Shown here in pieces: positions 26,972 through 53,280 of a stretch of 64,000 nucleotides of DNA. The DNA lies in assembly GCA_003450815.1 (NCBI GenBank), contig DMES01000037.1:831-64830 (forward strand), given 5' to 3'. Within the stretch, counting starts at the first letter, position 1. Each line of letters begins with the position of its first letter. Under the pieces are notes generated by a model. That model did not search any database. It was not told where the DNA came from and saw only the letters and a list, made by a program, of their open reading frames with translations. The stretch is from Elusimicrobiota bacterium (GTDB lineage: Bacteria > Elusimicrobiota > Elusimicrobia > Elusimicrobiales > UBA9959). The translations under genes and the position numbers were made by a program.

Positions 26972-26973
26972 AA

Positions 26974-33296: not shown

Positions 33297-33785
33297 TTGA
33301 AAGAAAAAATATCAGTCAGCGTAAGTTTAAAAAGCTATAAGGCCGATACTATCCGCTACGCGGCTTATGCGGTGAGCGGGGGGGCCTATGTTTTGCTCGG
33401 GCCGGGAAAAAAAGGGGAAGTGGAGGCGGCTTTTGAACCCAAGCCGAATGCGTCCGCAAAATATCGCGCCGGCCTTCAGAAGCTTTTTGAGTCGGAGTTG
33501 AGGGACGAAAAAATGCGTTCTGAAATAGCTGATGCCAACAGGGAACTAAGGGAATTTATGGTTCTTAAAGCTCTTTCTGCCGCCGACGACGCGGGAACTC
33601 AGGCAGGCGATTATGCCGGGCTTACCCCCGCCCAGGAAAAGGAATTGGACGCGCTTATTGCCGAGGTTGAGCGCGAAATAAAAACCGAAACCGCCGGCAA
33701 AGAGCGTAAAGATCCGCTTGGCATAACCAAAACATGGGAAGAAAAACATGGCTCAGAACCTTTTAAAAATAAAAACAAAAAATAG
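33297..33785 (+). CDS. HxsD-like small protein with charged C-terminal extension
   Basis: TTG start with GAGGAGGA 9 nt upstream. The N-terminus ISVSVSLKSYKADTIRYAAYAVSGGAYVLL parallels 35196..35516. It overlaps the following HxsB-like gene by 38 nt. Confidence 0.55.
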   Translation: MKEKISVSVSLKSYKADTIRYAAYAVSGGAYVLLGPGKKGEVEAAFEPKPNASAKYRAGLQKLFESELRDEKMRSEIADANRELREFMVLKALSAADDAGTQAGDYAGLTPAQEKELDALIAEVEREIKTETAGKERKDPLGITKTWEEKHGSEPFKNKNKK

Positions 33786-35211
33786 TGTCGCGCAAACCAA
33801 TCCGCCGCATTTTTATTGGCGGGAAGTAGACGGGGCTTACCTCATAAGCAATGATTCCGGCTGCCATGCGTGGCTGGACGCGGCGGCTTTTAAGCGCTTT
33901 TCCGCCGGCACGCTCAGGGAAAAAGACAAAGCCTTTGAGGAGCTTTCTTCAAAAGGTTTTATCAGAGACAGGCTGGATTTCGCGGATTTGGCCGCAAAAT
34001 GGAAGAGCAAAAATTCCCACCTGTCCTGCGGGCCGGGGCTGCATATTTTTGTAATGACGCTGCGGTGTGACCATAAGTGCCTTTATTGCCAGTCAGGGGC
34101 CATAAGCCTGAGCGCCAAAGGCGCGGATATGAAATGGCCCGCGGCCAAAAAAAGCGTGGATTTCGCATTTCAGACCACCGCTCCCGGCCTGACTATTGAG
34201 TTTCAGGGCGGCGAGCCGCTGCTTAACTGGGCGGTCCTTAAAAAAACCGTTTCCTACGCCAGGAAAAAAGAAAAGCTTTCGGGTAAACGCCTTAATCTTG
34301 GCCTTGTTTCAAATTTCAGCCGGATGACCGAAGGGTATGCCCGGTTTCTGCTTGAAAACGAGGTTTCCCTCTGCACCTCGCTTGACGGCCCGGCTGACCT
34401 GCACAACAGAAACAGAATTTGCTCCGGCGGCAATGCCCACGTGTCGGTACGCAAATGGCTAAGGTATTTCACGCGCAGGAACACCGGGCAGGGAGCCGGG
34501 TACAGGATTTTCAAGCCCAGCGCTCTGCTTACGGTCACCAAGTTTTCGCTGGGCCGTGCGCCCGAGATAATTGATGAATATGCCGGGCTTGGGCTTGAGG
34601 ATGTCTTTATACGGCCGCTTTCGCCAATCGGTTACGCTAAAAACAGCTGGAGCGCCATAGGCTATACGGCCGCGGATTTTGTGGCTTTCTACAAAGAAAG
34701 TCTTGGATATATACTGAAACTGAACCGTAAGGGCGCCGTTATAAGGGAAAAAATGGCCGCCATGCTCCTTGAAAAGATAATCGGTTTCAGTGACCCCGGG
34801 TATCTGGACATGCGGTGTCCCTGCGGCGCCGCGGTGGGGCAGATAGCTTACAACTACAACGGAGATCTTTACACCTGCGATGAGGGCCGCATGGCGGCCT
34901 GGGAGGGGGACGATCTTTTTAAAATAGGCAATGTGTTCAGGGACAGTTATAAAAAAGCCGTTTCCTGCTCCACCGCCAGGTCATGCGTGGCCGCTTCCGA
35001 GCTGCATTTACAGCCGGCGTGCTCAAGGTGCGCTTACAGCCCTTATTGCGGTGTTTGCCCCGTGTATAACTACGAAGCGCAGGGCTCGTTGTGGGGCAAT
35101 ATGCCCGCAAACGAGAGATGCGCTTTCATGAAAGGCATATTCGGTATTCTGTTTTCCAAACTAAAAAATTCCAAAGACAGGGAGATACTGCAAAAATGGG
35201 TGAAAAAGTGA
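33748..35211 (+). CDS. radical SAM/SPASM peptide maturase, HxsB-like (copy 1)
   Basis: 487 aa. It has an ~100-aa N-terminal extension (..YLISNDSGCHAWLDAAAFKRF..), CDHKCLYC, EFQGGEPLLN, and a SPASM-type C-terminus CPCGAA..YNYNGDLYTCDEG..ACSRCAYSPYCGVCPVYN. Confidence 0.7.
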   Translation: MAQNLLKIKTKNSVAQTNPPHFYWREVDGAYLISNDSGCHAWLDAAAFKRFSAGTLREKDKAFEELSSKGFIRDRLDFADLAAKWKSKNSHLSCGPGLHIFVMTLRCDHKCLYCQSGAISLSAKGADMKWPAAKKSVDFAFQTTAPGLTIEFQGGEPLLNWAVLKKTVSYARKKEKLSGKRLNLGLVSNFSRMTEGYARFLLENEVSLCTSLDGPADLHNRNRICSGGNAHVSVRKWLRYFTRRNTGQGAGYRIFKPSALLTVTKFSLGRAPEIIDEYAGLGLEDVFIRPLSPIGYAKNSWSAIGYTAADFVAFYKESLGYILKLNRKGAVIREKMAAMLLEKIIGFSDPGYLDMRCPCGAAVGQIAYNYNGDLYTCDEGRMAAWEGDDLFKIGNVFRDSYKKAVSCSTARSCVAASELHLQPACSRCAYSPYCGVCPVYNYEAQGSLWGNMPANERCAFMKGIFGILFSKLKNSKDREILQKWVKK

Positions 35212-35516
35212 AAAGTCATTCGCGTAGAATTATGTTCTCTAAACAAATATACGCGGCCGAAGCGGTTAAACTTGCGGCTTATGTTTTTTCAGACAAAGCC
35301 GATATAAAATTAGCATCCTCCGCCGGCGGCGTCGAGGCTGAAGTGTCCTGGGAAGGGAAGGATTGCGCGGTCGCCGGAGAATTTGCGAACGAGGTTCTTA
35401 ACCAGCAATGCCGGCTTGATCTGGCCGTGAAAAATGGAAAGGTCGCAAACATGATAGTTACCAAGGCCTTGCTTTCCGCTTCCGGTGAAACAGTGAAAAA
35501 GAGGGGGAAACAGTGA
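35196..35516 (+). CDS. HxsD-like small protein (copy 2)
   Basis: About 106 aa. ..FSKQIYAAEAVKLAAYVFSDKADIKL.. resembles 33297..33785. It overlaps the upstream stop. The start is uncertain (35196, 35208 or 35232). Confidence 0.5.
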   Translation: MGEKVKSHSRRIMFSKQIYAAEAVKLAAYVFSDKADIKLASSAGGVEAEVSWEGKDCAVAGEFANEVLNQQCRLDLAVKNGKVANMIVTKALLSASGETVKKRGKQ

Positions 35517-36529
35517 AAAAGTGGACTGTTCTTGTTTTTATAGCGCTTTTGGGGCTTATACTTGGCCTGCGTTATCTGAGTAAAAAGAATGAGGCAAAAG
35601 TGGAACAGAACGCAGGCATGCAGCTGTCCGAACCGGTGGGGGTTGCTCTGCCGCAGGGGGTGAATACCTACTCTCCATCAGGCTCTGTGGCGTCTTCTCC
35701 CGCAGACTCTTCCGCCCTGGATGCGGCCGCTTCCAAAGGGGCTTGTGAGGGCGGCGCTCTTAACGACATACTGTCTTCGCACGGAGTGTCATGGGGTTAT
35801 TCTACAAAAGGCGTTGTTTTTGAACCGTCTGAAACTGAAAAGATCTATGAGGCTTTGGAAAATTATTTTTCCTGCGAGGCTGTCGCCATGGACGATATGG
35901 CTGCATGTGGGCCCTTAACGACCGATTCGGGTGATAAAGGCGATGTGCGTTTCAGTAATCCAAGATATAAATGTTCCGATAGCGCGAACAGGGTGCTGTT
36001 CAAGGCCTATATGGCGGGGATGCACGGCAATGCTTCGGCTTGTGCGTCATTTCTTGCAGGCGATAGTGTCAAGGACATCAAGTTGGATACTGTTGAGTTT
36101 TGCAATATAGCCGCAAAGGGGATGGAGAATATCTGTGTCGGCCTTGCTCCCTTTCTTCCGGCCTCAAAAAAAGCGGAATGCCTGACGGTTTTTCCAGCTA
36201 AAAAAACCGACTGTAGCGGCAAAGAATTCTGTCTGGATAATTACAAAATATATTCCGCCATCAAGGCCAGAAATCCGGGCCAGTGCCCTGAGAAGTACCG
36301 GCCCGCTTGTGAAGCTTTCTTCTCTAAGCGTCAGGCTTCCTGTTCAAATCTCATCACGAAGGCCAGTAAACTGTATTGCTCATCCCTTGCCGTGTTAAAA
36401 AAGAAACAAGCCAGCGGCATGTTTTTGTCTGAGCAAGAAAAGAAAGATGCCGAAATACGGAAAAAGGAAGAGGAAAGAATAATGCAGGAAGTAAATAAAA
36501 ATGCGAGGAAAATGCTGGGTAAGGAGTGA
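35513..36529 (+). CDS. membrane-anchored cysteine-rich protein, hypothetical
   Basis: GTG start overlaps the previous stop (GTGA) and has GAGGGGG upstream. It has one N-terminal TM helix. I count 14 Cys. The tail is Lys/Glu-rich. Confidence 0.65.
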   Translation: MKKWTVLVFIALLGLILGLRYLSKKNEAKVEQNAGMQLSEPVGVALPQGVNTYSPSGSVASSPADSSALDAAASKGACEGGALNDILSSHGVSWGYSTKGVVFEPSETEKIYEALENYFSCEAVAMDDMAACGPLTTDSGDKGDVRFSNPRYKCSDSANRVLFKAYMAGMHGNASACASFLAGDSVKDIKLDTVEFCNIAAKGMENICVGLAPFLPASKKAECLTVFPAKKTDCSGKEFCLDNYKIYSAIKARNPGQCPEKYRPACEAFFSKRQASCSNLITKASKLYCSSLAVLKKKQASGMFLSEQEKKDAEIRKKEEERIMQEVNKNARKMLGKE

Positions 36530-36536
36530 AAATTTT

Positions 36537-36869
36537 ATGGCTCAAAAAAAATCCAAGCTTAAAAAAAATATAAAAATGTTCCTTAACAGCGAAGAAGGTA
36601 AAATGCTGGATGCCGATATTGTTAAAACCGGCATCGCCTTGGGTATTATGGGCGCGGTCATGGCGGATCAGGCTGCGGCTCAGGCCGTTGTACATTCAAA
36701 CTATTTTTTTAATTCAGGCCCAGGCAGTGGTTCAGGCCATGCCAGCCACCAGAGCCACGGTTCGCACGGTTCGCACGGTTCGCACGGCTCACACGCCTCG
36801 CACGGTTCGCACGGTTCGCACGGTTCGCACGGTTCGCATGGCTCGCACTCGCGCGGCGGCTGGTGCTGA
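36537..36869 (+). CDS. His-Xaa-Ser repeat peptide (HxsA-like candidate precursor)
   Basis: AAGGAG is 9 nt upstream of ATG 36537. It is 110 aa: [21 protein letters not shown] / [29 protein letters not shown] / ..GPGSGSG / HAS HQS (HGS)4 HAS (HGS)5 HSR / GGWC. Confidence 0.8.
36738..36854 (+). repeat. 9-bp tandem repeat (CACGGTTCG and variants) encoding the His-Xaa-Ser triplets
   Basis: Read directly. There are 12 full 9-nt units plus a terminal CAC TCG CGC. Most units are identical at the nucleotide level. Confidence 0.95.
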
Positions 36870-36927
36870 TGCTTTTTTCCGGCGCTTTGCTCTTGTTTGA
36901 ATAGCTGATGGATGTTTAAAAAATCCG

Positions 36928-37056
36928 ATGGCGCAGACGTATGTGTGGCGCCATAACGAGTGGAAAGGCGGTCGTCTGGCGGCTCAGTACGCTGTCAAAA
37001 ACGGCTTTAAATTGGAAAGCCTTATATCTTACAATTATCCCCCCCGCATCTTTTGA
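36928..37056 (+). CDS. candidate 42-aa small ORF coupled to the following radical SAM gene
   Basis: Below the track's size cutoff. [42 protein letters not shown]. Its TGA abuts ATG 37057 (TGAATG), and 37057 has no SD of its own. The sORF has no SD either. Confidence 0.3.
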
Positions 37057-38157
37057 ATGAAAGTTCCAAAAGAAATACAGAAACTGAAAATAGCGCTCAC
37101 AACGGATTGCGTTCTTGCCTGCCGGCACTGTCGGGTGGACAAAAAGGCCGGACTCACTATAAGTTTAGACGACGCTGCCCGTGGAGTGGATATGCTGATT
37201 TCCTCTCCCGGGAAATTGAAACGTCTTGAACTTTATGGAGGTGAGCCGTTTCTTAAATTCCGGCTGTTTAAGGATATCGTGCAATACGCCGTAAGGCTTT
37301 CGGCGCGGTCCTGCAAAAAACTTTCAATTTCAGCGGCCTCAAACGGGCTTGTGCTGAATGAAGACCACCTGAAGTTTATCAGGGAAAACCGTGTTAATCT
37401 CTCCATAAGCATTTCCGGCTCGGAGAAGGCTCATGACCTGACACGCGTTTATCCCGGAGGCGGTGGAAGCTACGCCGACCTCAAAAAAAAGCTGGCGCTT
37501 ATCTTCTCCCGGCTTGAGGCTGAAAATATTGTGGCGCTTGAATGCGTACATCCGGCCTGTGCCGCGTCGCTTGGACCCGATTTGCGCCGCTTGGCCGACT
37601 TTGGTTTTAAAGTGATAAATATAGAATGTGTGCACGGGCCTGATTGGGGGCAAAGCTCTCTTAAGGCATTTGAAAGTGCCCTCCTTTCTTTCTCGGGCCG
37701 GCTTTTTACGGCAGTTAAAAAAGGCGTTTACATAGCGCCGGAGCCGTTTCTGGAATTTTTTCGGGTAAAAGGCGCGGCTGCCAGTCTTCAATGTCCTCTT
37801 TACAGAGATCTTGAGCTTTATCCCGACGGTGTTTTTTCTTTTTATCCGTTTGCCTTTATGGATTATTCTAAATGGCGAAAAGCGGTTAAACTAGGAACCT
37901 CCATTTCCGGACTTTGCAGGAGGTATTCGGCCTGTATACCTGGTGGAAAATTGTGCGCCGGCTGCGTCAGTAAATATTATGTGATCGGAGGACTTGCCGG
38001 CGGAGCGCGTGCCTATACCCTTAGAACGGCGGTGCTTAAAAAAGTGCTTCTGGATATAATGCGGCGTGCCCGCACAGAAAAGGCCTTTAACGGGTATGTG
38101 CGCTGGCTTGCAGGCATTGAGCAAAGAACCTATGTCGATTACCGTGGAATGAAGTGA
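37057..38157 (+). CDS. radical SAM protein with auxiliary-cluster (SPASM/twitch-like) C-terminus
   Basis: 366 aa. Has CVLACRHC, LYGGEPFL, and later Cys motifs CPLY..PDGVFSFYP and CRRYSACIPGGKLCAGC. Confidence 0.75.
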   Translation: MKVPKEIQKLKIALTTDCVLACRHCRVDKKAGLTISLDDAARGVDMLISSPGKLKRLELYGGEPFLKFRLFKDIVQYAVRLSARSCKKLSISAASNGLVLNEDHLKFIRENRVNLSISISGSEKAHDLTRVYPGGGGSYADLKKKLALIFSRLEAENIVALECVHPACAASLGPDLRRLADFGFKVINIECVHGPDWGQSSLKAFESALLSFSGRLFTAVKKGVYIAPEPFLEFFRVKGAAASLQCPLYRDLELYPDGVFSFYPFAFMDYSKWRKAVKLGTSISGLCRRYSACIPGGKLCAGCVSKYYVIGGLAGGARAYTLRTAVLKKVLLDIMRRARTEKAFNGYVRWLAGIEQRTYVDYRGMK

Positions 38158-38220
38158 ATGCCGCAAACGGCGGGTTGCAGGATGTCTCAAAAATAAAAAA
38201 AATCTTTTCCATTGAAATAT

Positions 38221-39624
38221 ATGAAAAAACCATTCATAGCATCGTACAATTTCAATTTTGTAAAAAAAGGCCGAAATATTTTAATTTCAAACGAGTTCGG
38301 CGGCTGGAGTCTTATAGGTGAGGCTGATTTTAAAAAATTGGCCGCCGGAAGGCTTTTACACGGCAGTTTAGCGCGTGAGCTTTCCGAAAAGGGGTTTGCG
38401 GCCAACCGCATGGATATGAAAGGCATGGCATTAGGGCTCTCCAAAACGCTGTTTGGTGGTTGGAAAGGGCCGCACGTACATATAATTTCGCTCACACAGC
38501 GTTGCAACCAAGCCTGCGCGTATTGCTGCGCCTCAGCGGGTCACGGCGGCGGCGGCATGAGCCGTAAGACCGCGGCCAAAACCCTTGATTTTATTTTTTC
38601 CATCCCCTGCGGGGACCTGGTTATGGAATTTCAGGGTGGAGAGCCGCTGCTTAATTTCAGCGTTCTGCGGTTCATGGTGAACTCGGCGCGGCGCCGCGCC
38701 GTTGCGCAAGGCCGAAGGGTTCATTTCTCAGTGGTCACAAACCTTACCGCCATGACCGCGGCAAAGCTGGAATTTTTGGTTTTAAACGGTGTTACAATCT
38801 GCACCTCCCTTGACGGGCCCGCTTCCCTGCACGACGCGAACCGCAGATTGGCCGGGCGCGGGACACACGCGCTGGTAACCGCCTGGCTTAAAAAAACAAG
38901 AGTTGCGGCAAAGAAATACCCAGGGTTTGAGCCGCCGAACGCAATCAGCACTATAACGCGCGCTTCGCTGGCGCAGCCCGAGCGTATAGTGGACGAGTTT
39001 ATCAGGCAGGGCATACGCCGCGTGCAACTTGGGCCGCTGGATCCGTTGGGACGCGCCGCCGGCGGCTGGGGCGCGCTGGGTTTTTCCGCCGCGGAATTTC
39101 TGGCTTTTTATTCACGGGCGCTGGATTACATGCTGGCGCTTAACCGCCGCGGTAATCCGGTTTATGAGAAAGGCGCGGTTATGTTCTTAAAGGAAATATT
39201 CGGATTCGGGCGGCCGCGCTACCAGAACCTGGATATTTTTTACCGTCTCGCTTACAATATAGACGGCGGAGTTTACGGGTCGGACGAGGCCCGGATGCTG
39301 GCCAACTCCGGAGACGACTCCTTCCGCCTTGGCAGTGTGCAGCGGGATAGTTTTAAGAGGCTTATAAAAAAACCGACTACCAGGCTGCTGCTGCTTTCGG
39401 CCTTTCCGCAGCTTACCCAGAGCGCCTGCGCCCGCTGTCCATATTCGGTCTGGTGTCGTGTAAGCCCTGCTCATAACTGGGCCGCGCAGGGTTCCTTCTG
39501 GGGAGATATGATGACCAGCCAGCGCTGTGCGATTTTTAAAGGGGTGTTTGACCTGCTTTTATCCAGGCTGAGTGATCGCGCCGCCGGGCCTGTCCTGCGG
39601 CATTGGTCGGAGTTTGAGCCTTAA
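38221..39624 (+). CDS. radical SAM/SPASM peptide maturase, HxsB-like (copy 2)
   Basis: MKKPFIASYNFNFVKKGRNILISNEFGGWSLIGEADFKKL.., CNQACAYC, EFQGGEPLLN, ..ACARCPYSVWC. The track's start at 38212 is TTG, so ATG 38221 is preferred. Confidence 0.7.
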   Translation: MKKPFIASYNFNFVKKGRNILISNEFGGWSLIGEADFKKLAAGRLLHGSLARELSEKGFAANRMDMKGMALGLSKTLFGGWKGPHVHIISLTQRCNQACAYCCASAGHGGGGMSRKTAAKTLDFIFSIPCGDLVMEFQGGEPLLNFSVLRFMVNSARRRAVAQGRRVHFSVVTNLTAMTAAKLEFLVLNGVTICTSLDGPASLHDANRRLAGRGTHALVTAWLKKTRVAAKKYPGFEPPNAISTITRASLAQPERIVDEFIRQGIRRVQLGPLDPLGRAAGGWGALGFSAAEFLAFYSRALDYMLALNRRGNPVYEKGAVMFLKEIFGFGRPRYQNLDIFYRLAYNIDGGVYGSDEARMLANSGDDSFRLGSVQRDSFKRLIKKPTTRLLLLSAFPQLTQSACARCPYSVWCRVSPAHNWAAQGSFWGDMMTSQRCAIFKGVFDLLLSRLSDRAAGPVLRHWSEFEP

Positions 39625-39636
39625 ATTCCCGTCACT

Positions 39637-40680
39637 ATGATAAAATCTAGGTATATGAAGGCAAAAGCTCTTTCCTACAGGCAGGCTGCGGCGCGTTTCG
39701 GCTGGCCGGCAGGGCGGATGAAAATTTGCGAACTAACGCTCGGCTACTCCTGTAACGCCCGCTGCGTGTTCTGCTACAGTTCGCCGGAGCTTGAAAACTG
39801 GAAAGAGCGTCCGTCCATGGATTTAAGGCGGGCGGGGGAGCATTTGCTGGCTTCCTATAAAAATGGCGCCCGCATGCTACAGATTATAGGCGGCGAGCCC
39901 ACCATAAACGAAGACCTTCCCCGCGTAATAAGTCTGGCCAAACGCACAGGTTACCTGGCGGTGCAGATAGTGTCAAATGGCCTTAAGCTTGCGGACGAGG
40001 ATTTTGTTAAAACGCTTGTAAAATCAGGCTTGAATACCGCCAATCTTTCTATCCACGGCCCTGACCGCGTCACCCACGACGCGGTAGTGGGGGTTGAGGG
40101 GGCTTTTGAAAGCACTCTTAAAGCGGCGCGCAATTTAATAGATGCCGGGGTTTACATCAACACCGGCACAGCCGTCACAGGCATTAATTACCGTAAAATT
40201 CCGGCCCTGGCCGCTTTTGTTCTGCGTGAGCTGGGAGTGGATTCCTGCCACATTATAGCCGCGCATTACCTTGGAGCGGCCTTCAAAAGGCGCAGGGCCC
40301 TGCGTGTTACTTACACTGAACAGATGCCGTATATTAAGAAGGCTGTGGCGGCCTTCCGCTTGGCGTATGTGAGGCCGGCTTTCGCTTTCCTAAGCAATTA
40401 TCTGCCCTGTGTGCTGCCCGGCTACGAGGCCCTGATGGGCGACTGGAAGTATCCTGAGGCTGACGACGACCTGTATCTGCCGGAAGCCAGTCACGAAGGA
40501 CGGATGTACACGATGATAACCGAAACTCTGCGCATGAAGTCTCCTTACTGCAAGCGGTGTGTTTATTGTGGCGTCTGCGCCGGTTTTGAAAAAACATATT
40601 TTGAAATGTTTGGCGGCGGGGAATTTGTTCCGCTTCTTGAGAAACCGGATGTTTACCCACTGAAGCCGGTGTGCGTATGA
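39637..40680 (+). CDS. radical SAM protein, compact CX2CX5C family
   Basis: 347 aa. Has CNARCVFC, IIGGEPT, LPCVLPGYEALM, and the C-terminal CKRCVYCGVCAGFEKTYFEMFGGGEFVP. Confidence 0.8.
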   Translation: MIKSRYMKAKALSYRQAAARFGWPAGRMKICELTLGYSCNARCVFCYSSPELENWKERPSMDLRRAGEHLLASYKNGARMLQIIGGEPTINEDLPRVISLAKRTGYLAVQIVSNGLKLADEDFVKTLVKSGLNTANLSIHGPDRVTHDAVVGVEGAFESTLKAARNLIDAGVYINTGTAVTGINYRKIPALAAFVLRELGVDSCHIIAAHYLGAAFKRRRALRVTYTEQMPYIKKAVAAFRLAYVRPAFAFLSNYLPCVLPGYEALMGDWKYPEADDDLYLPEASHEGRMYTMITETLRMKSPYCKRCVYCGVCAGFEKTYFEMFGGGEFVPLLEKPDVYPLKPVCV

Positions 40681-40736
40681 GTTGTACTAGGGTGAAATTT
40701 CTTCTTAATTTTTACCGGTCAGGCGTGATCTGAAGT

Positions 40737-44250: not shown

Positions 44251-45671
44251 AAAAAACCATGTCGCTTATGCCTTTTGGTTTTGCGCCGGTTACCGGAGGG
44301 GTGTTGGTTTCCAACGACTTCGGCGGCTGGCTGGTTCTGGACGGAAGGGAGTTCAGGAGCCTGAAAGACGGAAGCTTTGCGCGCAAGAAAGGGCTTTGCG
44401 CCAAACTTGCACGGCGCGGTTTTATAAAAGAGCGGCTTGATTTTGAAAGCCTCGGGCAGGATATGGGCGGACTTCACAGGCACAGTTTCGGCGGCCCGAG
44501 CCTGCACATACTTGTGGTAACGCTGAAGTGCAACCACGCCTGCGTTTATTGCAGGGCGGTAAAAGCCGGCGGGTTTGAAAAAGCCGTGATGAGTCTTGAG
44601 ACCGCCAAAAAAAGCATAGACATGGCCTTTTCCTCACCGAATAAAAATATCGTTATTGAGTTCCAGGGCGGCGAGGCGCTCATAAACTGGCCGGTAGTCA
44701 GGAACGCCATTCTTTACGCCCGGAAGAAAAACACGGCATACGACAAAAACCTTGAAATTTCGGTTGTAACGAATCTTAGCCTGATGGACGAGGAAAAATT
44801 TTCTTTCCTTACCGGTCACGGCGCCGGGGTATGCGCCTCTCTTGACGGCCCCGCTTTTTTGCACGACGCCAACCGGCGCTACGCTGGAGGCTCTTCGCAT
44901 GAAAAGACCTTGTATTGGCTGAAAAAAGCGCTTTCCTTGAAACATGGCGGGGAAAAAGACTCGCTCCCTTCGGCTCTAATGACGGCCACAAAGCTTTCAC
45001 TGAAGTATCCGGAAGAAATTGTTGAAACTTACCGCAAGATCGGGCTGGGCGGTATATTTCTGCGTCCGCTATCGCCGATAGGCTTCGCGCGGTCTGTTTG
45101 GGGCGATATCGGCTATAAGTCTGAGGAATTCGGTTCTTTTTACCGTTCGGCGCTTGAACATATTCTCAGGCTGAACCGGCGCGGCGAGCGTTTTGTGGAG
45201 CGCAATGCCGCCATAGTGGCCCGGAAAGCGCTTAAAAAAGAAGACCCCAACTTTCTGGATCTGCGTTCTCCGTGCGGAGGAGCCATTGGACAGCTAGCCT
45301 ATAACTGGGATGGCGGGGTTTACACCTGCGACGAAGGCAGGATGGCAGGTTTCGGCCGGGACGATTTTTTCAGGCTCGGCAGCGTTTACAAAAACTCTTA
45401 TCAGGAAATAATCAGCGCTCCCGCGGCCAGAGTTTGCGCTTTGGCTTCCTGTCTAGAAAACCAGAGCGCCTGCTCGCGCTGCGCGTGGAAGCCTTTTTGC
45501 GGAGTTTGTCCCGTGTATAATTATGAAACCCAGGGGTCTCCGTGGGGAGATATAGTCACCGGGGACTGGTGTAAAATACAAAAAGGCATTTTCTCGGCGG
45601 TTTTTGACGCCTTGTCAAAACCCTCCAGCCGTAAGATTATAGAGGGCTGGCTGGACACAACGGATAGGTAG
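44247..45671 (+). CDS. radical SAM/SPASM peptide maturase, HxsB-like (copy 3)
   Basis: 474 aa. ATGA overlap with the upstream gene. Has ..VLVSNDFGGWLVLDGREFRSL.., CNHACVYC, EFQGGEALIN, and CGGAIGQLAYNWDGGVYTCDEG..ACSRCAWKPFCGVCPVYN. Confidence 0.7.
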   Translation: MKKTMSLMPFGFAPVTGGVLVSNDFGGWLVLDGREFRSLKDGSFARKKGLCAKLARRGFIKERLDFESLGQDMGGLHRHSFGGPSLHILVVTLKCNHACVYCRAVKAGGFEKAVMSLETAKKSIDMAFSSPNKNIVIEFQGGEALINWPVVRNAILYARKKNTAYDKNLEISVVTNLSLMDEEKFSFLTGHGAGVCASLDGPAFLHDANRRYAGGSSHEKTLYWLKKALSLKHGGEKDSLPSALMTATKLSLKYPEEIVETYRKIGLGGIFLRPLSPIGFARSVWGDIGYKSEEFGSFYRSALEHILRLNRRGERFVERNAAIVARKALKKEDPNFLDLRSPCGGAIGQLAYNWDGGVYTCDEGRMAGFGRDDFFRLGSVYKNSYQEIISAPAARVCALASCLENQSACSRCAWKPFCGVCPVYNYETQGSPWGDIVTGDWCKIQKGIFSAVFDALSKPSSRKIIEGWLDTTDR

Positions 45672-45803
45672 ATAGGCTGTAGGCAGTTAGCCTGTGGGAG
45701 GAAATTTTTCGCGGTCATGCGAAGTGTAGAGCGTTCTGGGCGCCTTGGTCGGTTAATGCGTAACGACTAACAGCCTTCAGTCTATAGCGTAAACAACCTA
45801 TTT

Positions 45804-46691
45804 ATGCCTGATATATCTTTTTGGAACAAATGCAACAGCAAGTGCGTGATGTGTACAAACATGGCTTCTTTTTCCTCGCAGGACAGCTCGCAGTACGGCT
45901 TGAAGAGGCAGATACGGAAAATGGAAAGCTATCTGAAGGGGGAGAGCGTATATTTCAAGAACGCAGACAAATCCGATTTTTTAAGCCTTACCGGCGGCGA
46001 GCCCACCTTACACCCCGATTTTTTCCAGCTGCTCGCCTATTTCAGGCGGAGGCTTGCCGGGACGCCCATCAGGCTTCTGACAAACGGAAGGACGCTTGCT
46101 GATACCGGGTTTACCGCTAAATTGCTGAAAACAGCCGGTCCTCCTTTCTGTTTTATAATTCCTCTGCATGGCTCCGGCCCCTCTCTGCACGATAAGGTCG
46201 CCGGAGTGAAAGGCTGTTTTATGCAGACCATGAAAGGGCTGGAGAACCTGTTTTCCATGGCCGGCGGCAGGGATATAGAAATACGCGTTGTTCTTCATAA
46301 GTTGAACGCCGTGGCTTTGCCTGACATCCTGAAACTTCTGCTTAAAAAATTCCCCCGCACTTCCCGCTACCGCGTGGTAGTTATACACTATGAGATAGAG
46401 GGGGAGTCGGAAAGAAACCACCCCCTGCTGGCGTTACGGTTTAAAAATTCTGTCCGGGCCGTGCGCGCCTGCGTGCGCCTTCTGCCAAAATTCGCGCATC
46501 TTGAGCTTTATCATTTTCCACTTTGTGTTCTTCCGCCGTCTTTGCGTGCCCTGGCCCGCGTCACCCTGCCCCGCGCGGACAGAATATATCCGCCCTCAAA
46601 ATGCGGCCGCTGCGCGCTCAAAGCAAAATGCCTGGGGCTTATGCGTGCATACCACAAAAAATTCGGGGCCTCGGAGCTGAAAACTATATGA
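45804..46691 (+). CDS. radical SAM protein, compact CX2CX5C family
   Basis: 295 aa. Has CNSKCVMC, LTGGEPTL, FPLCVLPPSL, and CGRCALKAKCLGLMRAYHKKFGASEL. Confidence 0.8.
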   Translation: MPDISFWNKCNSKCVMCTNMASFSSQDSSQYGLKRQIRKMESYLKGESVYFKNADKSDFLSLTGGEPTLHPDFFQLLAYFRRRLAGTPIRLLTNGRTLADTGFTAKLLKTAGPPFCFIIPLHGSGPSLHDKVAGVKGCFMQTMKGLENLFSMAGGRDIEIRVVLHKLNAVALPDILKLLLKKFPRTSRYRVVVIHYEIEGESERNHPLLALRFKNSVRAVRACVRLLPKFAHLELYHFPLCVLPPSLRALARVTLPRADRIYPPSKCGRCALKAKCLGLMRAYHKKFGASELKTI

Positions 46692-47839: not shown

Positions 47840-48765
47840 AAAAGAAAATAGCGAAGAAGCTCAAAATTGTGGTTTTTACCGGCTACGCCTGCAATAATAA
47901 CTGCCGGTTCTGCATTGCCGCCGATAAGCGTCTGCTGCCCCAGAAAACCACGGCGGAGCTTTCGCGTGAAATTTATCAGGCGCGCAATAAGGGCGCGCAA
48001 ATACTTGAAATCATAGGCGGCGAGGCCACGATAAGAAAAGACTTCTCTCACATGGTTTCTCTCGCCAAAAAGATAGGCATTCCTGAGGTTATATGCGCCA
48101 CCAACGGCCGTGTGTTCTCGGATTTAAGCCGCGCGCGCGAAATAGTGGAGGCGGGAATGGATACCCTTGTTTTTTCCGTGCACGGCGCCAAAGCGGCCGT
48201 GCATGACGCTTTGACCCGAAGCCCCGGCAGTTTCAGCGAGTTGTGCCGCGGCCTGGAAAACTTAAAAAAAATCGGGTTCTCGAACATAAATGGCAATACG
48301 GCCGTTGTAAAAACCAATATGCGCGGGCTGCCGGAGATAGCAGGGTTTTACGCGGAACATAAAGTGCGCAATGTAGAATACATTTTCGTCGATTCAAATT
48401 CCGGCGGTGCCAATAATAATTTTTTTGAGCTTGTTCCCCATATTTCAAAAGCCGCGCCTTTCATGAGGCGGGCTCTGGAGATAGGGCTTAAGGCCGGTTT
48501 TGGACAGTGGAAAGTGCGTTATGTGCCCCTTTGCCATTTTACCGGCTATGAGGCTCAGATAAGCGAAATCAACGAGAAGGCTCTTTTTCTTACCGAGCAT
48601 TGGGCGCCCGATTTTAAAAACCTCGATGTGGTAAAATCCAGAGCCGCTGTCGGCCGGAGAAAAACTGAAAAGTGCCTTGGCTGCCGGCTTTACGGAACTT
48701 GCGAAGGTATTTGGGTGGAATATCTTAAAAACTACGGAGACGAAGAGCTGCATCCGGTACAATAA
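47836..48765 (+). CDS. radical SAM protein, compact CX2CX5C family
   Basis: 309 aa. ATGA overlap. Has CNNNCRFC, IIGGEATI, VPLCHFTGYEAQI, and CLGCRLYGTCEGIWVEYLKNYGDEELHP. Confidence 0.8.
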   Translation: MKKKIAKKLKIVVFTGYACNNNCRFCIAADKRLLPQKTTAELSREIYQARNKGAQILEIIGGEATIRKDFSHMVSLAKKIGIPEVICATNGRVFSDLSRAREIVEAGMDTLVFSVHGAKAAVHDALTRSPGSFSELCRGLENLKKIGFSNINGNTAVVKTNMRGLPEIAGFYAEHKVRNVEYIFVDSNSGGANNNFFELVPHISKAAPFMRRALEIGLKAGFGQWKVRYVPLCHFTGYEAQISEINEKALFLTEHWAPDFKNLDVVKSRAAVGRRKTEKCLGCRLYGTCEGIWVEYLKNYGDEELHPVQ

Positions 48766-49839
48766 ATGCGCGCGCCAAACCATCTTGTGATATACCTGAG
48801 CGGCAGATGCAATCTTGCCTGCGTTTACTGCTATGCCAGGTTTAAAGGCGCGCCCATAAGCCGTAAACGCCTTCTGGCCGCTTTGGACATTTTTTTTAAA
48901 AACGGCATTACAGGAAAAAAAATTACTTTTTTAGGCGGAGAGCCCGCGCTGCATCCCGCCCTGCTGAAGGCGGCGGTTTTAAGAGCGCGCCTGAAGGCCG
49001 GACGGGATTTGCCGATACAGGTTTTCACCAACGGCACCATGCTCACCCGGTCTCTTTTAAACTTTTTGTCCGGCCGGGGGGTGAAGATTGTTCTCAGCCT
49101 TGACGGGCCCGCGTCCGAAACCGACCTTAACAGGCGCTTCAAGGCCGGCGGCGGCTCGGTTTTTTCCTCGGCGGTCAAAAATGCGGGGAACAGGGAAAAT
49201 ATTGTCGTGAGCATGGTTGTTACTCCGCAAAGCGCCTTAAGGCTGGCGGAAAACATTGAGAGCCTGCTGGCCCTTGGGTTTAAAAGGCTTGCCTGGGCGC
49301 CTGACATCTCCACCCTTTGGAATCAGCGCTCGCTGGCGGAGCTGAAAAAATCGGCGCTGAAAGCTAAGGCCGGCTACTTCAAGGCTTTAAGAAGCGGCGG
49401 CCGGATTTACGAGATAGCCAATATATATGAAATACTTAAGCTTGCGCGCGGCGGCGGCAAGCTGCCCGGCTGCATGAATATAACGCTTGGCCCGGATGGA
49501 TTCTTTTATCCTTGCGATAAAATTTTTGCCGGAGGGCTTGACCGCATAAAGCGTTTCAGGGTTGGGGCCGATGGAACCGGGAGAGAAAAATTTTTTCGCT
49601 TCGCCTCCGCCCTCGGGGCCGGCTCAAAGCAGGTACTGTGCGCTGTGGCGCCCTGGGCGCTGCGCCATTTCTCTCCGGGAGGCCCTGGGCCTCAGGACGC
49701 GGCGGCGCTTAAGCGGCAATACCAGGCGCGCAAGACGGTTCTGGCCTGGCTTGAAGGGATGGCCGTAGAAGGTTGTAAATATCCGGCTTTCCGTTCGGTG
49801 CATGGTTTAAAAAGCTGTAGTCGCCAAAAAATCAGATAA
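48766..49839 (+). CDS. radical SAM protein with partial SPASM/twitch region
   Basis: 357 aa. Its start abuts the previous TAA. Has CNLACVYC, FLGGEPAL, and GCMNITLGPDGFFYPCD. Confidence 0.75.
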   Translation: MRAPNHLVIYLSGRCNLACVYCYARFKGAPISRKRLLAALDIFFKNGITGKKITFLGGEPALHPALLKAAVLRARLKAGRDLPIQVFTNGTMLTRSLLNFLSGRGVKIVLSLDGPASETDLNRRFKAGGGSVFSSAVKNAGNRENIVVSMVVTPQSALRLAENIESLLALGFKRLAWAPDISTLWNQRSLAELKKSALKAKAGYFKALRSGGRIYEIANIYEILKLARGGGKLPGCMNITLGPDGFFYPCDKIFAGGLDRIKRFRVGADGTGREKFFRFASALGAGSKQVLCAVAPWALRHFSPGGPGPQDAAALKRQYQARKTVLAWLEGMAVEGCKYPAFRSVHGLKSCSRQKIR

Positions 49840-49877
49840 AGCTGATTTTTTGGGACTTTTTAAGTTAAAATCAAAAT

Positions 49878-51140
49878 ATGGAGCCGAAAAATAATAATAA
49901 GTGTTACGAACTTATACTGAATTATAACTGTAACGCGCGTTGTCTGTTTTGCTCGCAGGGCTCCTTTGATAAGTCTCTTAACGCCGATTTTAAGCTGACG
50001 GCTGAAAACATCTACGGGGCGTATAAAAGCGGATACAGGCGCCTGGGGCTTACCGGCGGAGAGCCGCTTATCCGGACTGACATCCTGAAAGTTATCTCGC
50101 TCGCCAGGTCTGTCGGATTTAATTTTATCAGGGTTCAGACCAACGGTATAAAACTCTCCGACCCGGCTTTCTGCCGTCGCCTGGCGGGCGCCGGGCTTAC
50201 TTTCTGCAAATTATCGCTGACCTCTGACAGGCCGGCCGAACATGACCGCCTGCTGGGGGTAAGCGGCGCCTGGGAATCCGCCGTTCGGGGCGCCAAAACC
50301 CTGCGCAAACTAAAAATACGCCTTGGCAATAATATTCTGATAAATGCCCTGAATTATAAGCGGCTGCCGGAAATAATCCGGTCATTTCTGGAATTGGGAA
50401 TAACAAACTTTGTGGTTATTTACCCGGTTTATATCGGCAGCATGGCTTCGCATTCGGCCGAGCTGGGTGTGAGCCTGGGAGAATGCGAAAAATATTTTGC
50501 CGAAGCCGCCGACCTTATGGACAAATCCGGGCTGGCGGGCGAAATTCTTTTTTTGAATGTGCCGCCCTGCTTTTTGAAAGGCCGCGAGTCTTTAGCCATA
50601 GGGCTGGATCTTTTTAATACGGTGGTTACAGACCCGGCGGGAGGAAAAAACGATCTGGATGTCACCGCCAACCGGGCCAAGGTGCGCGCTCCCGCCTGCC
50701 GGTATTGTTCTCTCAGGCGTCGCTGCGCGGGGGTGGACGCCCATTATGCGGAGATATTGGGCTTTGACGGTTTTAAGCCGGTCCTTAAACCCCGCCTCGC
50801 GCAAGGCGCCGTTCGCGAAACACCGCGCGTATTCTTTTCCGATAACGAACTTTGCCTTATTGAAATACTTAAAAAAGAAAATCCTTCCTCCACCGCGAGG
50901 GTTTTAAAACTGGCAAAAAACATCGTCCTTTGCCGGGACTGCTCCGACGGCAACTCTGTGCTGAACGCCGCGCAAAGCCTTGTAAAAAAAGGCCTTGTTG
51001 AAAGCGTCTTTGAGCGCGGGCATTATTACTGGAGGCTCATCAAGAGCACAGGAGAGCGGGTCACAGGTCACAAGTCACAAGTCACAAGTTACAAGAGCAT
51101 AAGAGTACAGAAAAATAATGTCGCGGGAGAAGAAGACTGA
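49878..51140 (+). CDS. radical SAM protein (compact CX2CX5C family) fused to a C-terminal winged-helix-like domain
   Basis: 420 aa. Has CNARCLFC, LTGGEPLI, PPCFLKGRESL, and CRYCSLRRRCAGVDAHYAEILGFDGFKP. A ~90-aa domain follows (..NELCLIEILKKENPSSTARVLKLA..AAQSLVKKGLVESVFERGHYYWRL), then a tail encoded by GTCACAAG word repeats. Confidence 0.75.
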   Translation: MEPKNNNKCYELILNYNCNARCLFCSQGSFDKSLNADFKLTAENIYGAYKSGYRRLGLTGGEPLIRTDILKVISLARSVGFNFIRVQTNGIKLSDPAFCRRLAGAGLTFCKLSLTSDRPAEHDRLLGVSGAWESAVRGAKTLRKLKIRLGNNILINALNYKRLPEIIRSFLELGITNFVVIYPVYIGSMASHSAELGVSLGECEKYFAEAADLMDKSGLAGEILFLNVPPCFLKGRESLAIGLDLFNTVVTDPAGGKNDLDVTANRAKVRAPACRYCSLRRRCAGVDAHYAEILGFDGFKPVLKPRLAQGAVRETPRVFFSDNELCLIEILKKENPSSTARVLKLAKNIVLCRDCSDGNSVLNAAQSLVKKGLVESVFERGHYYWRLIKSTGERVTGHKSQVTSYKSIRVQKNNVAGEED

Positions 51141-52033
51141 TGGCTCTCTTGCGTCTGTTTGCCAAGTGCTGCCAGAAATGCGTTTTCTGCTCATATCCCC
51201 GGGAAAAGGAAAGCGGCCGCGCGGCTGAGGAAAAACTTTCGTATTGGCTTAAGTCCGCCGCCGCCGTGAAAGCCCCGCTTATACAGATTTCAGGCGGGGA
51301 GCCGTTGCTGGCCGAGCCTTACGATCTGCTCAAGCTTGCGGCCTTCTGCGCGCGGTTGGGCCGCCGGGTGGAGATCCAGACCAACGCTTCCGGCATTTCG
51401 GGCAGGTTTTCCGAGACGGAACTACAAAAACTGATTAAAATAATTTCCGGGAGCGGCGGCTACTTTAATATTAATTTTTCCGCCGATACTCCCGGGAGCG
51501 ACCTTAAAATTACCCGGACACGCGGCGCTTTTGCCCGGCGCCTTGAAACGGTTAAAAAAATGCTTTCACAGGGCGCGAGCGTGCGTCTGACTTTTGTGAT
51601 CACTAAGCTCAATTACCGGCGCCTTGAAAAATTCGGTTTTTTTGTCGTAAAAGAGTTGAAAGGGGTGTCCTGGGTCCAATTCAGTTTTGTAAAGGGGAGC
51701 GGCCGTGCGGCTTTTGCGAAGAAAATAGTCCCGCGATACGCTATGGCCGCTCCGTATCTGCGCCGTGCGCTTGCGGTTTGCGGGGCCGCCGGTCTTAAGT
51801 GCGAGGTGGATCATATCCCGCCATGTTTTCTCGGTGAGTATTACCGCTGCCATGTGGATATCGGGAAAATGAAGCTTGGTTCGCCAGGGCCTCATTTGGC
51901 CGAGAAAGAGAAACTGACAGAGTGCCTCGGCTGCGGGCTTTACAGTGGTTGTTCAGGCCCCAGGAAAGATTATATAGCCATTTACCCCGGTGCCGGCCTT
52001 ACTGGCGCCGGGATTTACGGCGGATTAAAATGA
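51140..52033 (+). CDS. radical SAM protein, compact family (divergent)
   Basis: 297 aa. TGATG overlap. Has CCQKCVFC, ISGGEPLL, IPPCFLGEYYRC, and CLGCGLYSGCSGPRKDY. Confidence 0.7.
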   Translation: MALLRLFAKCCQKCVFCSYPREKESGRAAEEKLSYWLKSAAAVKAPLIQISGGEPLLAEPYDLLKLAAFCARLGRRVEIQTNASGISGRFSETELQKLIKIISGSGGYFNINFSADTPGSDLKITRTRGAFARRLETVKKMLSQGASVRLTFVITKLNYRRLEKFGFFVVKELKGVSWVQFSFVKGSGRAAFAKKIVPRYAMAAPYLRRALAVCGAAGLKCEVDHIPPCFLGEYYRCHVDIGKMKLGSPGPHLAEKEKLTECLGCGLYSGCSGPRKDYIAIYPGAGLTGAGIYGGLK

Positions 52034-53280
52034 AAAAAATGAATACTGCGTTTGAAAAAGAATTCCCCGCGCTTGGGAGTAACTTCGGCGGCAAAAAGCT
52101 GGTTTACCTTGACAGCGCCTGTACCGCGCTTAAGATGCGGACGGCCGCCGCCGCCCATTCGGAGTTCTTGCTTGAAAGCGGTTTTTGCGGCGGCAGGCGT
52201 TCAGCCCATCTGCCGGCGGTGGCGGTGGAAGAGGCGTTCTTTGAAGCCAGGAGGACAGTGGCGGGTTTTATAGGCGCGGCCCGGGCGGAGGAGATAATCT
52301 TCACGGCTGGGACCACGGACGCGTTTAATTTGTTCCTGTCTTCGTTCCCATTTGAGGGGTCCAGAAAGGAAGTGATTGTTTCTCCGCTTGAGCATAATGC
52401 TGTTTTTCTGCCGCTTTTAAATATGTCAAAGCGCGGCGGGATCCGGCTCAGGGTTATCCCGCTCAGGAACTGGGCGCCTGATCTTTCCGCGTACCGGAAA
52501 CTTTTATCCGCGAAGACGGCTTTGGTATGCCTCAACCGCGCCTCTAATATTTTTGGCGGCGTCACTGACACCGCCCCGTTCGCGCGGCTGGCCAGGGAGG
52601 CGGGGGCTAAAGTGTTTTTGGATGAAGCGCAATATCTGCCCACGCACGCGGAAAATGTCCGCTCCGCCGGGGCCGACGCCTGCGCTTTTTCCGGTCATAA
52701 ACTGGGCGCGCCTTTCGGCACAGGCGCTCTTTATGTCGAACGCTCGCTGATGGAACGACTTGTGCACGGCAAAGTGGGCGGGGGCACTGTGCGTGAAGTT
52801 TCAAGAACGCCCGGCGGCTTTTGCGCGGAGTATTTGAGCGGCTACCAGGGTTTTGAGCCGGGGGTGCAGAATTACGCCGGCGCAGTGGCGCTGGCCGCGG
52901 CAATTAACGCCCTCTCAAAAACTGGAATGCCCGCTATACGGACCCGCGTGGAAGAACTTGTTTCCTATGGTCTTAAAAAGTTTTCGCGGGCGAAGGCCGT
53001 GCGCGTAGTCGGCGACCGGACCCGGCTGAAACTCGGATCTATAATCCCGCTGGTTCCAGCGGCCCCCGGGTTTTCCACGGTTGATTTTAACCTTTACCTG
53101 AACCACGGGGTGAGGGGCAGGGTTATCGCTTTGCGCACGGGCCGGCATTGCGCGGATCTGGCCGCTTTAACATCAGGTACGGACGATATCATCCGCTTGT
53201 CTTTTTTTGTCTATAACAGCAGGGCTGACATAGACGCTTTTGCCGAAGCCCTTGAGGAATACGCGTCCTGCCTCGGCTGA
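52030..53280 (+). CDS. class-V aminotransferase / cysteine desulfurase (SufS/CsdA-like)
   Basis: ATGA overlap with the last rSAM gene. Has YLDSACTAL, the PLP-lysine context FSGHKLGAPFGTGALYV, and the active-site Cys context RTGRHCADL. Confidence 0.75.
   Translation: MKKMNTAFEKEFPALGSNFGGKKLVYLDSACTALKMRTAAAAHSEFLLESGFCGGRRSAHLPAVAVEEAFFEARRTVAGFIGAARAEEIIFTAGTTDAFNLFLSSFPFEGSRKEVIVSPLEHNAVFLPLLNMSKRGGIRLRVIPLRNWAPDLSAYRKLLSAKTALVCLNRASNIFGGVTDTAPFARLAREAGAKVFLDEAQYLPTHAENVRSAGADACAFSGHKLGAPFGTGALYVERSLMERLVHGKVGGGTVREVSRTPGGFCAEYLSGYQGFEPGVQNYAGAVALAAAINALSKTGMPAIRTRVEELVSYGLKKFSRAKAVRVVGDRTRLKLGSIIPLVPAAPGFSTVDFNLYLNHGVRGRVIALRTGRHCADLAALTSGTDDIIRLSFFVYNSRADIDAFAEALEEYASCLG

Follow-up and report, generated by a model that had tools for sequence, protein, structure and literature searches.

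The window analysed here, 64,000 nucleotides from the metagenome-assembled genome of an uncultured Elusimicrobia bacterium of the phylum Elusimicrobiota (GenBank assembly GCA_003450815.1, contig DMES01000037.1, positions 831 to 64,830), carries an operon that we interpret, with moderate confidence, as an enlarged, modular and lineage-specific form of the His-Xaa-Ser (Hxs) protein-maturation system, with the 110-aa HxsA4 precursor encoded by its fifth gene as the probable substrate. All 20 open reading frames (ORFs) lie co-directionally on the plus strand at 33297-53280 (Table 1). Twelve encode radical S-adenosylmethionine (rSAM) enzymes; ORF2 and ORF13 pass the HxsB model and the peptide passes the HxsA4 model, in agreement with the Hxs-type assignment made in an initial annotation of the sequence. 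With 20 genes against four, the locus holds far more than the canonical set, as that annotation had also stated. The parent system is characterised and the subtype is named in NCBIfam; the enlarged locus is an unstudied relative, several components of which fail strict membership. The label 'uncharacterised' given at first holds for the enlarged form, but the peptide subtype, for which NCBIfam keeps a curated model, is not wholly unrecognised.

Ten junctions overlap or abut, in line with the first count: ORFs 1/2 (-38 nt), 2/3 (-16), 3/4 (-4), 9/10 (0), 12/13 (-4), 14/15 (-4), 15/16 (-4), 16/17 (0), 18/19 (-1) and 19/20 (-4). The widest intergenic gap, initially given as 132 nt, is in fact 187 nt (precursor stop at 36869 to ORF6 start at 37057), and the 132-nt gap (45671 to 45804) ranks second. 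The operon is found with identical proteins in two separate assemblies (JGI 3300009296 and SRR6482189), which excludes an assembly artefact, and a protein identical to ORF15 is deposited from an Elusimicrobia metagenome-assembled genome (MAG). Promoter and terminator scans within the operon gave nothing clearly above shuffled expectation and were not used. The 187-nt spacer (36870-37056) contains inverted repeats, for example at ~36919-36955 and 37003-37021, and may serve in transcript processing or attenuation, thereby setting the ratio of precursor to enzymes.

Protein matches were judged against family cut-offs, in bits, of 370 for HxsB (TIGR03978), 267.9 for HxsC (TIGR03977), 50 for HxsD (TIGR03976), 55 for HxsA4 (NF038313), 500 for HxsC4 (NF038332), 41 for HxsD_rel (NF038315), 27 for SPASM (TIGR04085), 21.5 for PF13186, 22.4 for PF01136, 440 for the UbiU equivalog, 26.5 for PF01478 and 475 for TIGR01979.

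The HxsA4 precursor

ORF5 is preceded by an AAGGAG ribosome-binding site 8 nt upstream and consists of a Lys-rich leader with the motif FLNSEEGK, a hydrophobic helix, 12 HxS repeats and an HSRGGWC tail. Its C-terminal array reads HAS-HQS-(HGS)4-HAS-(HGS)5-HSR-GGWC, exactly as first described, and corresponds at the DNA level to a 9-nt tandem repeat of 10.3 copies. The HxsA4 score (57.3) is above the cut-off; neither a peptidoglycan-binding domain nor any other Pfam domain was found, and no canonical HxsA model match is listed. There are 290 homologues, the named ones coming from Elusimicrobiales and Omnitrophota MAGs, in which NCBI already labels them HxsA4. The FLxSEEGK leader, the hydrophobic helix and the C-terminal Trp are conserved across 22 homologues from two phyla. 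Repeat number varies (7-22 HxS repeats in the loci examined), an H(S/T)N motif is also present in the homologues, and the Trp occurs as RGGWC or HGQW. The names HxsA4 and HxsC4 appear in no paper of the literature searched and exist only as NCBIfam models.

Radical-SAM enzymes

All 12 rSAM proteins of the operon, and a thirteenth encoded upstream, exceed the PF04055 gathering score. The 12 CxxxCxxC motifs reported initially are all present, and each is kept in 97-100% of the orthologues of its family (motif and Cys conservation was scored over 13-54 orthologues per rSAM family). An all-against-all comparison, one of the checks first proposed, separated a B-type group (ORF2, ORF7 and ORF13, 38-43% identity), a short B-core-like group (ORF6 and ORF17) and a C-type group (ORF8, ORF11, ORF12, ORF16 and ORF18), with ORF14 standing apart and ORF19 pairing with the upstream minus-strand enzyme.

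Two of the three ~470-aa proteins taken at first for HxsB-like enzymes qualify. ORF2 scores 468 with the HxsB model and 36 with TIGR04085, and its orthologues combine CxxxCxxC with eight conserved C-terminal Cys; ORF13 scores 445, passes PF13186 (23.5) and has CteB as its closest solved relative (5wgg, E 3e-17). ORF7 (354) falls just short and has no SPASM match; five non-core Cys are conserved in it, against 7-8 in ORF2 and ORF13, so that the SPASM Cys set is partly lost, and its orthologues are 33-54% identical. The two short enzymes have PapB-like scores far under the cut-off for ORF6 (107 bits; conserved C163, C191, C246, C293, C300 and C303) and under it for ORF17 (113 bits; C236, C250 and C292).

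Among the C-type enzymes, ORF14 has the top HxsC score of the window (154 versus 268), the other proteins scoring 68-104. ORF8 (HxsC4 98.6, HxsC 92.8) and ORF12 (82 and 77) are below both cut-offs and have conserved C258 and C232, respectively, plus a CxxCx5C motif. ORF11 and ORF16 resemble HxsC4 (152 and 141 versus 500); each has a 48% identical orthologue in an Omnitrophota locus, that of ORF16 lying beside HxsA4 in locus L005 (loci carry L numbers). ORF18 (HxsC 81) and ORF19 (HxsC 78) are likewise sub-cut-off, the latter 26% identical (90 bits) to the upstream rSAM protein at 28034-28954 (306 aa, HxsC 67.5). The C-terminal extension of ORF18 has conserved C326, C352 and C355, and may be a peptide-recognition or zinc-binding module. 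Residues ~300-420 of ORF18 give a weak Plectin/S10-like (winged-helix) match; a winged-helix peptide-binding domain is conjectural.

Each rSAM paralogue has its own 1:1 orthologues (24-76% identity) with intact CxxxCxxC and auxiliary Cys sets. The paralogues are therefore old, with separately maintained functions, rather than recent duplicates, and this conservation indicates purifying selection on every one of them.

HxsD-like and accessory proteins

The two proteins initially called HxsD-like have specific matches, both below the HxsD cut-off. ORF1 scores 38.5 (E 1e-9) and has 32 orthologues, on some of which precomputed PF27806 HxsD matches exist. ORF3 scores 45.8 (E 6e-12) and 31.9 with HxsD_rel, a protein identical to it has a precomputed PF27806 match, and it is 31% identical to ORF1 over 84 aa.

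The putative U32 pair, A24-like membrane protein, Cys-rich anchored protein and putative terminal cysteine desulfurase that the initial annotation had singled out are all real and conserved. ORF4, the Cys-rich protein, has an N-terminal hydrophobic anchor and 14 Cys, of which 12 are invariant among nine homologues; no Pfam or NCBIfam match was found, and its all-alpha AlphaFold2 (AF2) model (pLDDT 73.7) has no significant fold match in the Protein Data Bank (PDB). A homologue lies directly 5' of the peptide gene in six loci (L003, L005-L008 and L081).

For ORF15, an alignment of 19 sequences (the window protein and 18 orthologues) gave three invariant motifs: D23 within D.A..KIPN, WPAGDAKF (D96) and a C-terminal GRPFALWI. 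These appear to correspond to the two-aspartate signature of A24 prepilin peptidases, with Asp residues in D...(I/L)P(N/D) and GxGD(A/V)K-like motifs and a C-terminal PF..W motif, and the putative substrate has the short basic leader, conserved Gly and following hydrophobic helix of an A24 substrate. PF01478 matches eight of the 19 sequences (best E 4e-6) and, among distant relatives, three of ten, all sub-threshold; two orthologues are named prepilin peptidase by NCBI. Unlike Peptidase_A24, most members of the family fall under the Pfam cut-off, and ORF15 contains an insertion, a soluble domain of ~60-70 aa in which the motif F..D...DG is invariant. A profile of the orthologues found nothing among PDB sequences. 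The wider family comprises 929 clusters.

ORF9 passes PF01136 (Peptidase_U32, 47.8) and scores 40.9 with UbiU, far below the cut-off; its conserved Cys are C119, C169, C176 and C188. ORF10 has no direct family match in Pfam or NCBIfam. It aligns with the family of an upstream partner protein, upX (hhalign 99.9%), which in turn aligns with the ORF9 family (91.8%), and it has an invariant CXnCX9CX3C pattern, compared with CXnCX12CX3C in UbiV. The upstream pair consists of a 318-aa U32 protein (26974-27930, UbiU-like 45.6) and its 275-aa partner (26150-26977); together with the upstream rSAM enzyme they form a minus-strand trio whose members are paralogous to ORF19, ORF9 and ORF10, respectively. 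The four Cys are kept in all four U32 or U32-like proteins. UbiU-UbiV and their U32 relatives are Fe-S proteins that hydroxylate anaerobically and depend on prephenate (PMC6747719, PMC10990095). The window pairs share with UbiU-UbiV the adjacency of a U32-domain protein and a smaller partner, each with four conserved Cys at similar spacing; they differ in their low scores (41-46 versus 440), in lacking UbiT and a quinone pathway context, and in their presumed peptide substrate, which would be new for the family.

ORF20 matches PF00266 (Aminotran_5, 244 bits) and scores 248 with TIGR01979. It contains the motifs SGHK and RTGRHCA, the Cys of the latter being 100% conserved in orthologues. It stays with ORF19 across rearrangements; the 4-nt overlap of the two genes, their persistence together without ygeY in L023 and the position of ORF20 inside the operon in L066 assign it to the operon. 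Membership of the downstream selenium-linked ygeY/ygeW cluster was considered and rejected.

Table 1 Genes of the Hxs-type operon and the associated upstream trio in the window
Feature	Coordinates	Strand	Evidence
ORF1, HxsD-like, 162 aa, charged C-terminal tail	33297..33785	+	TIGR03976 38.5 bits
ORF2, HxsB-type rSAM/SPASM, 487 aa, HxsB of conserved core	33748..35211	+	TIGR03978 468 bits
ORF3, second small HxsD-like, 106 aa	35196..35516	+	TIGR03976 45.8
ORF4, membrane-anchored Cys-rich all-alpha protein, 338 aa	35513..36529	+	Anchor, 14 Cys, AF2 model
ORF5, HxsA4 precursor, 110 aa	36537..36869	+	NF038313 57.3
ORF6, short rSAM, 366 aa, kin of PapB/HxsB-type N-terminal core	37057..38157	+	PF04055 37.9
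ORF7, HxsB paralogue, 470 aa, reduced SPASM region	38212..39624	+	TIGR03978 354
ORF8, HxsC-like rSAM, 347 aa	39637..40680	+	PF04055 70
ORF9, U32-family Fe-S protein, UbiU-like, 281 aa	40737..41582	+	PF01136 47.8
ORF10, remote U32-like partner, UbiV-like, 231 aa	41583..42278	+	hhalign, Cys spacing
ORF11, HxsC4-like rSAM, 301 aa	42315..43220	+	NF038332 152; PF04055 96
ORF12, HxsC/MoaA-like rSAM, 311 aa	43315..44250	+	PF04055 88.5
ORF13, HxsB paralogue, full SPASM, 474 aa	44247..45671	+	TIGR03978 445
ORF14, nearest counterpart of canonical HxsC, 295 aa	45804..46691	+	TIGR03977 154
ORF15, polytopic membrane A24/GxGD-type aspartyl protease-like, inserted soluble domain, 383 aa	46688..47839	+	Asp motifs
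ORF16, HxsC4-like rSAM, 309 aa	47836..48765	+	NF038332 141
ORF17, short PapB/HxsB-core-like rSAM, 357 aa	48766..49839	+	PF04055 54
ORF18, HxsC-like rSAM, 420 aa, conserved ~120-aa C-terminal extension	49878..51140	+	HxsC 81
ORF19, divergent HxsC-like rSAM, 297 aa	51140..52033	+	HxsC 78
ORF20, SufS/CsdA-like pyridoxal-phosphate cysteine desulfurase, last gene, 416 aa	52030..53280	+	PF00266 244
Upstream trio: HxsC-like rSAM (28034-28954), U32 (26974-27930), U32-like partner (26150-26977)	26150..28954	-	PF04055, PF01136

Modular organization in related genomes

Related loci were sought by scanning one genome per species with the ORF15 alignment, a search by peptide alignment having failed for want of a sufficiently conserved stretch. 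The scan yielded 70 loci, nearly all from Elusimicrobiota. By best-hit synteny, one layout is compact (1-2-3-14-15-16-18-19-20, with ORF14 directly 3' of ORF3 in the order 1-2-3-14) and the others are expanded and window-like. The core across loci is HxsD, HxsB, HxsD', an HxsC-like enzyme, the membrane protease, rSAM enzymes and SufS; the movable modules are the precursor with its Cys-rich partner, extra HxsB and HxsC paralogues, and UbiU/UbiV-like U32 pairs. On one 313-kb contig the precursor module lies ~8.5 kb from the core, past ygeY/ygeW, and consists of HxsB-ORF4-HxsA4, three more rSAM genes and two U32 pairs. The window fuses into one operon modules that are separate elsewhere, with genes 4-13 placed between genes 3 and 14; the initial picture of a single, greatly expanded system gives way to one of modules lying apart in related genomes. 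Counts of rSAM genes per ±10 kb locus reach 13, and the window is among the fullest versions but not unique.

The survey of homologue neighbourhoods that had been proposed at the outset showed the same HxsA4 plus HxsB/HxsD arrangement recurring in Elusimicrobiota and Omnitrophota. In both phyla the peptides are surrounded by HxsD-(small HxsD-like)-HxsB-ORF4-like-HxsA4, followed by HxsC-like rSAM enzymes, an ORF15-like membrane protein and further rSAM enzymes, including B12-dependent ones in Omnitrophota. One Elusimicrobiales MAG has two Hxs-type loci (L080, JAILAB010000017.1, and L060, JAILAB010000059.1), one window-like with an RGGWC peptide and the other with a shorter HGQW peptide, B12-binding rSAM enzymes and rSAM-flavodoxin fusions. 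The upstream trio lies inside the operon and on its strand in five other genomes (L057, L059, L061, L065 and L071) and so belongs to the system.

The physical separation of modules in relatives, such as the ~8.5 kb with ygeY/ygeW between core and precursor/U32 module in one of them, would also fit a composite locus, in which an Hxs core acts on the peptide while unrelated rSAM/U32 modules serve, for example, anaerobic hydroxylation of RNA, quinone or lipid, giving two or three independent pathways. The trio of the window is indeed on the opposite strand, 4 kb upstream, and all characterised U32 hydroxylases act on quinones or RNA. We nevertheless consider such a composite unlikely: the modules are always close and are interleaved in varied orders on one strand in four genomes (L057, L059, L065 and L071), HxsC-like genes flank ORF9 and ORF10, with abutting junctions, and U32 genes accompany the distinct HGQW-type Hxs locus too.

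Chromosomal site and neighbouring genes

The site has a conserved order: bamA, phoH (with the rSAM-U32 trio), barnase-barstar, a secreted Cys-rich protein, the operon, and ygeY-ygeW. Two paralogous secreted-looking proteins of 256 and 268 aa (31482-33080, plus strand) have a signal-like N-terminus, repeated GIGT..P motifs and a Cys-rich C-terminus, with no family match; an orthologue lies directly 5' of ORF1 in most related loci, and they may be part of the system. A barnase-like ribonuclease and barstar inhibitor (29238-30220, plus strand) are conserved just upstream in many Elusimicrobiota genomes. Downstream (53328-59024, plus strand) are YgeY, a selenium-metabolism-linked M20 hydrolase, the knotted carbamoyltransferase YgeW, carbamate kinase and threonine synthase. 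All pass NCBIfam cut-offs except carbamate kinase (254 bits, below 358), and these genes, a catabolic cluster of their own, delimit the operon on its 3' side. Farther away, a 2dG-II purine riboswitch aptamer (Rfam RF03165, 72.8 bits, above the gathering score) lies at 7136-7205 on the minus strand.

Comparison with known systems

The initial annotation held that no chemistry or product is known for Hxs systems. The canonical HxsDBCA system has in fact been characterised as an antiphage system that blocks phage DNA entry in Escherichia coli (Li et al., Nat Commun 2026, PMC13128918). HxsA is cleaved at its N-terminus, accumulates in the periplasm and confers defence only if HxsB, HxsC and HxsD are all present; HxsC binds HxsD; and cleaved HxsA carries a +8 Da modification on an SHRSS motif, for which dependence on HxsB, HxsC and HxsD was not directly assessable (PMC13128918). 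Of the canonical systems, 99.8% have four genes and 99.7% are in Pseudomonadota (PMC13128918).

The window resembles this system in its two HxsB copies that pass the equivalog model, its HxsC- and HxsD-like proteins, the core order D-B-(D')-C, and a precursor that combines tandem His-Xaa-Ser repeats with a hydrophobic export segment near its N-terminus; processing at that end and a product in the periplasm would be expected here too. It differs in gene number (20 versus 4) and rSAM number (12-13 versus 2). The four-gene D-B-C-A cassette is absent, the D-B-D'-C order being kept only in compact relatives, and the HxsC- and HxsD-like proteins fall below family cut-offs. Canonical HxsA has ~214 aa, a signal peptide, five repeats and a peptidoglycan-binding domain, whereas the window precursor has 110 aa, 12 repeats and no such domain. 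Components of the window beyond the four-gene set are the A24-like membrane protease, the Cys-rich partner, the U32 pairs and SufS. This type occurs in Elusimicrobiota and Omnitrophota at a fixed chromosomal site, whereas nearly all canonical systems are in Pseudomonadota. With respect to the NCBIfam models HxsA4, HxsC4 and HxsD_rel, the window peptide passes the first, and ORF11, ORF16 and ORF3 are sub-cut-off for the others.

Among multi-rSAM pathways for peptides that are made on the ribosome and modified post-translationally (RiPPs), we compared SCIFF/CteB, the PapB ranthipeptides and cyclophane-forming triceptide enzymes such as FxsB, HaaB and HtkB. They share with the window a SPASM maturase with a repeat-containing precursor and a three-residue repeat logic (aromatic residue-X-X), and His-to-Cbeta crosslinks are known chemistry there. 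In contrast to them, the window has HxsB-like proteins that score far below those families, many more distinct rSAM paralogues per precursor, and a product that looks more like an anchored protein sent out of the cytoplasm than like a small secreted peptide. PADLOC returned only a generic viperin-type rSAM similarity on the window and no defence-system assignment. Identity with the rSAM suite encoded beside novel nitrogenase paralogues of groundwater Elusimicrobia (bioRxiv 10.1101/765248) was rejected because the window lacks a NifH-type P-loop and the operon a nif-like gene.

A proposed maturation route

From the observed gene content, family relationships, conservation and modularity we infer a substrate, an order of steps, a cleavage site, a localisation and a general chemistry. 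HxsA4 would be made with its Lys-rich leader (FLxSEEGK), one hydrophobic helix and the 12-HxS array ending in GGWC. In the cytoplasm the leader would recruit three HxsB-type SPASM enzymes, seven HxsC-like single-auxiliary-cluster enzymes (with an eighth encoded upstream), two short rSAM enzymes and two HxsD-like adaptors, which may modify the His/Ser repeat units by several different radical reactions. Hydroxylations that need no oxygen are probably contributed by the UbiU/UbiV-like U32 pairs, and the SufS-like desulfurase would supply sulfur for the ~30 predicted Fe-S clusters. ORF15 could then cleave off the leader on the cytoplasmic side of the membrane, a cut after the near-invariant Gly21 being most plausible, so that the modified array would end in the periplasm, tethered by its own helix or held by the disulfide-rich, membrane-anchored ORF4. 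No ABC exporter, C39 peptidase or soluble protease is encoded in the operon, which, together with the precursor's own helix, favours an exported protein over a diffusible peptide or cofactor.

A peptide-templated small molecule, that is, a modified amino acid or cofactor excised from the HxS scaffold in the manner of pyrroloquinoline quinone or mycofactocin, with one copy per repeat, would account for the many identical tandem tripeptide units and the very large tailoring set. The HxsC-like proteins weakly match PqqE and the mycofactocin maturase, and U32 was originally described as a peptidase family. We judge this origin quite improbable, given the exported-protein features of the precursor (a conserved membrane or signal-like helix and a C-terminal Trp), the conserved, extracytoplasmic-looking, disulfide-rich partner ORF4, the lack of a dedicated soluble protease, carrier or consumer enzyme in the operon, and a canonical system in which the modified protein itself is the effector. 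Least likely is the alternative, raised initially, that the peptide is no substrate but a His-rich chaperone or store for Ni, Zn, Cu or Fe while the rSAM enzymes act on another molecule: the His-Gly-Ser repeats and terminal Cys do resemble metal-binding tails and in some genomes the precursor gene has no linkage to those of the core enzymes, but a recognised precursor would typically show just such a strongly conserved FLxSEEGK leader and HxsB/HxsD co-location, the predicted topology puts the repeats outside the cytoplasm, away from the Fe-S enzymes, and canonical HxsA processing depends on HxsB, HxsC and HxsD.

Several findings count against an Hxs-type maturation of HxsA4 as proposed. No window protein reaches the HxsC, HxsC4 or HxsD cut-offs, and canonical HxsA cannot do without its peptidoglycan-binding domain, which HxsA4 lacks. 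The precursor gene of compact loci does not adjoin those of the core enzymes, and at L003/L004 (10001-10330) an ORF4-like gene and an HxsA4 peptide stand alone beside isocitrate dehydrogenase with no adjacent rSAM gene, so the linkage of substrate and enzymes is not absolute. For the protease step, ORF15 of the window has no Pfam match, its good AF2 model (pLDDT 80.5) has no PDB fold match, and HxsA4 lacks the prepilin-typical Phe/Met at +1 and Glu at +5 after Gly21. For the hydroxylation step, the link of ORF10 to U32 is transitive only, and the literature searched holds no precedent for a U32 hydroxylase acting on a peptide or for U32 proteins in RiPP clusters.

Biological role and implications

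Defence, metal binding and an envelope function are candidate roles. The sole experimental precedent is the periplasmic block to phage DNA entry (PMC13128918). The lack of a peptidoglycan-binding domain, a fixed and apparently vertically inherited site among housekeeping genes and the lack of a specific PADLOC match mean that a lineage-wide envelope function fits at least as well. A bolder version, which we put forward as doubtful, is that Elusimicrobiota inherit the system vertically as a trait of the envelope, related systems occurring in Omnitrophota, and that it is no sporadic defence cassette; a dozen distinct rSAM enzymes and prephenate-type U32 hydroxylases would turn a genetically encoded (His-Gly-Ser)n array into a periplasmic polymer of new chemistry, heavily cross-linked and hydroxylated. 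Such a polymer might be a metal-binding or redox-active envelope component.

Of the chemistry of Hxs systems, even in the four-gene E. coli version, only a +8 Da shift is known. The 12-13 conserved rSAM paralogues, two U32 pairs, membrane protease and desulfurase gathered around one peptide represent many testable enzyme-substrate pairs, which could reveal new radical chemistry on His and Ser and possibly the first anaerobic hydroxylation of a peptide by U32 enzymes. On the bolder version above, HxsA4 would be the first peptide substrate for U32 hydroxylases, and an A24-type protease would be newly used as a RiPP leader peptidase. These findings bear on rSAM and RiPP enzymology and, in candidate phyla, on the biology of defence and of the envelope. 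Beyond Pseudomonadota, Hxs-type systems are widespread and have diversified in poorly known, mostly uncultured phyla, and the fixed chromosomal site raises the question of whether their original role was phage defence or envelope biology.

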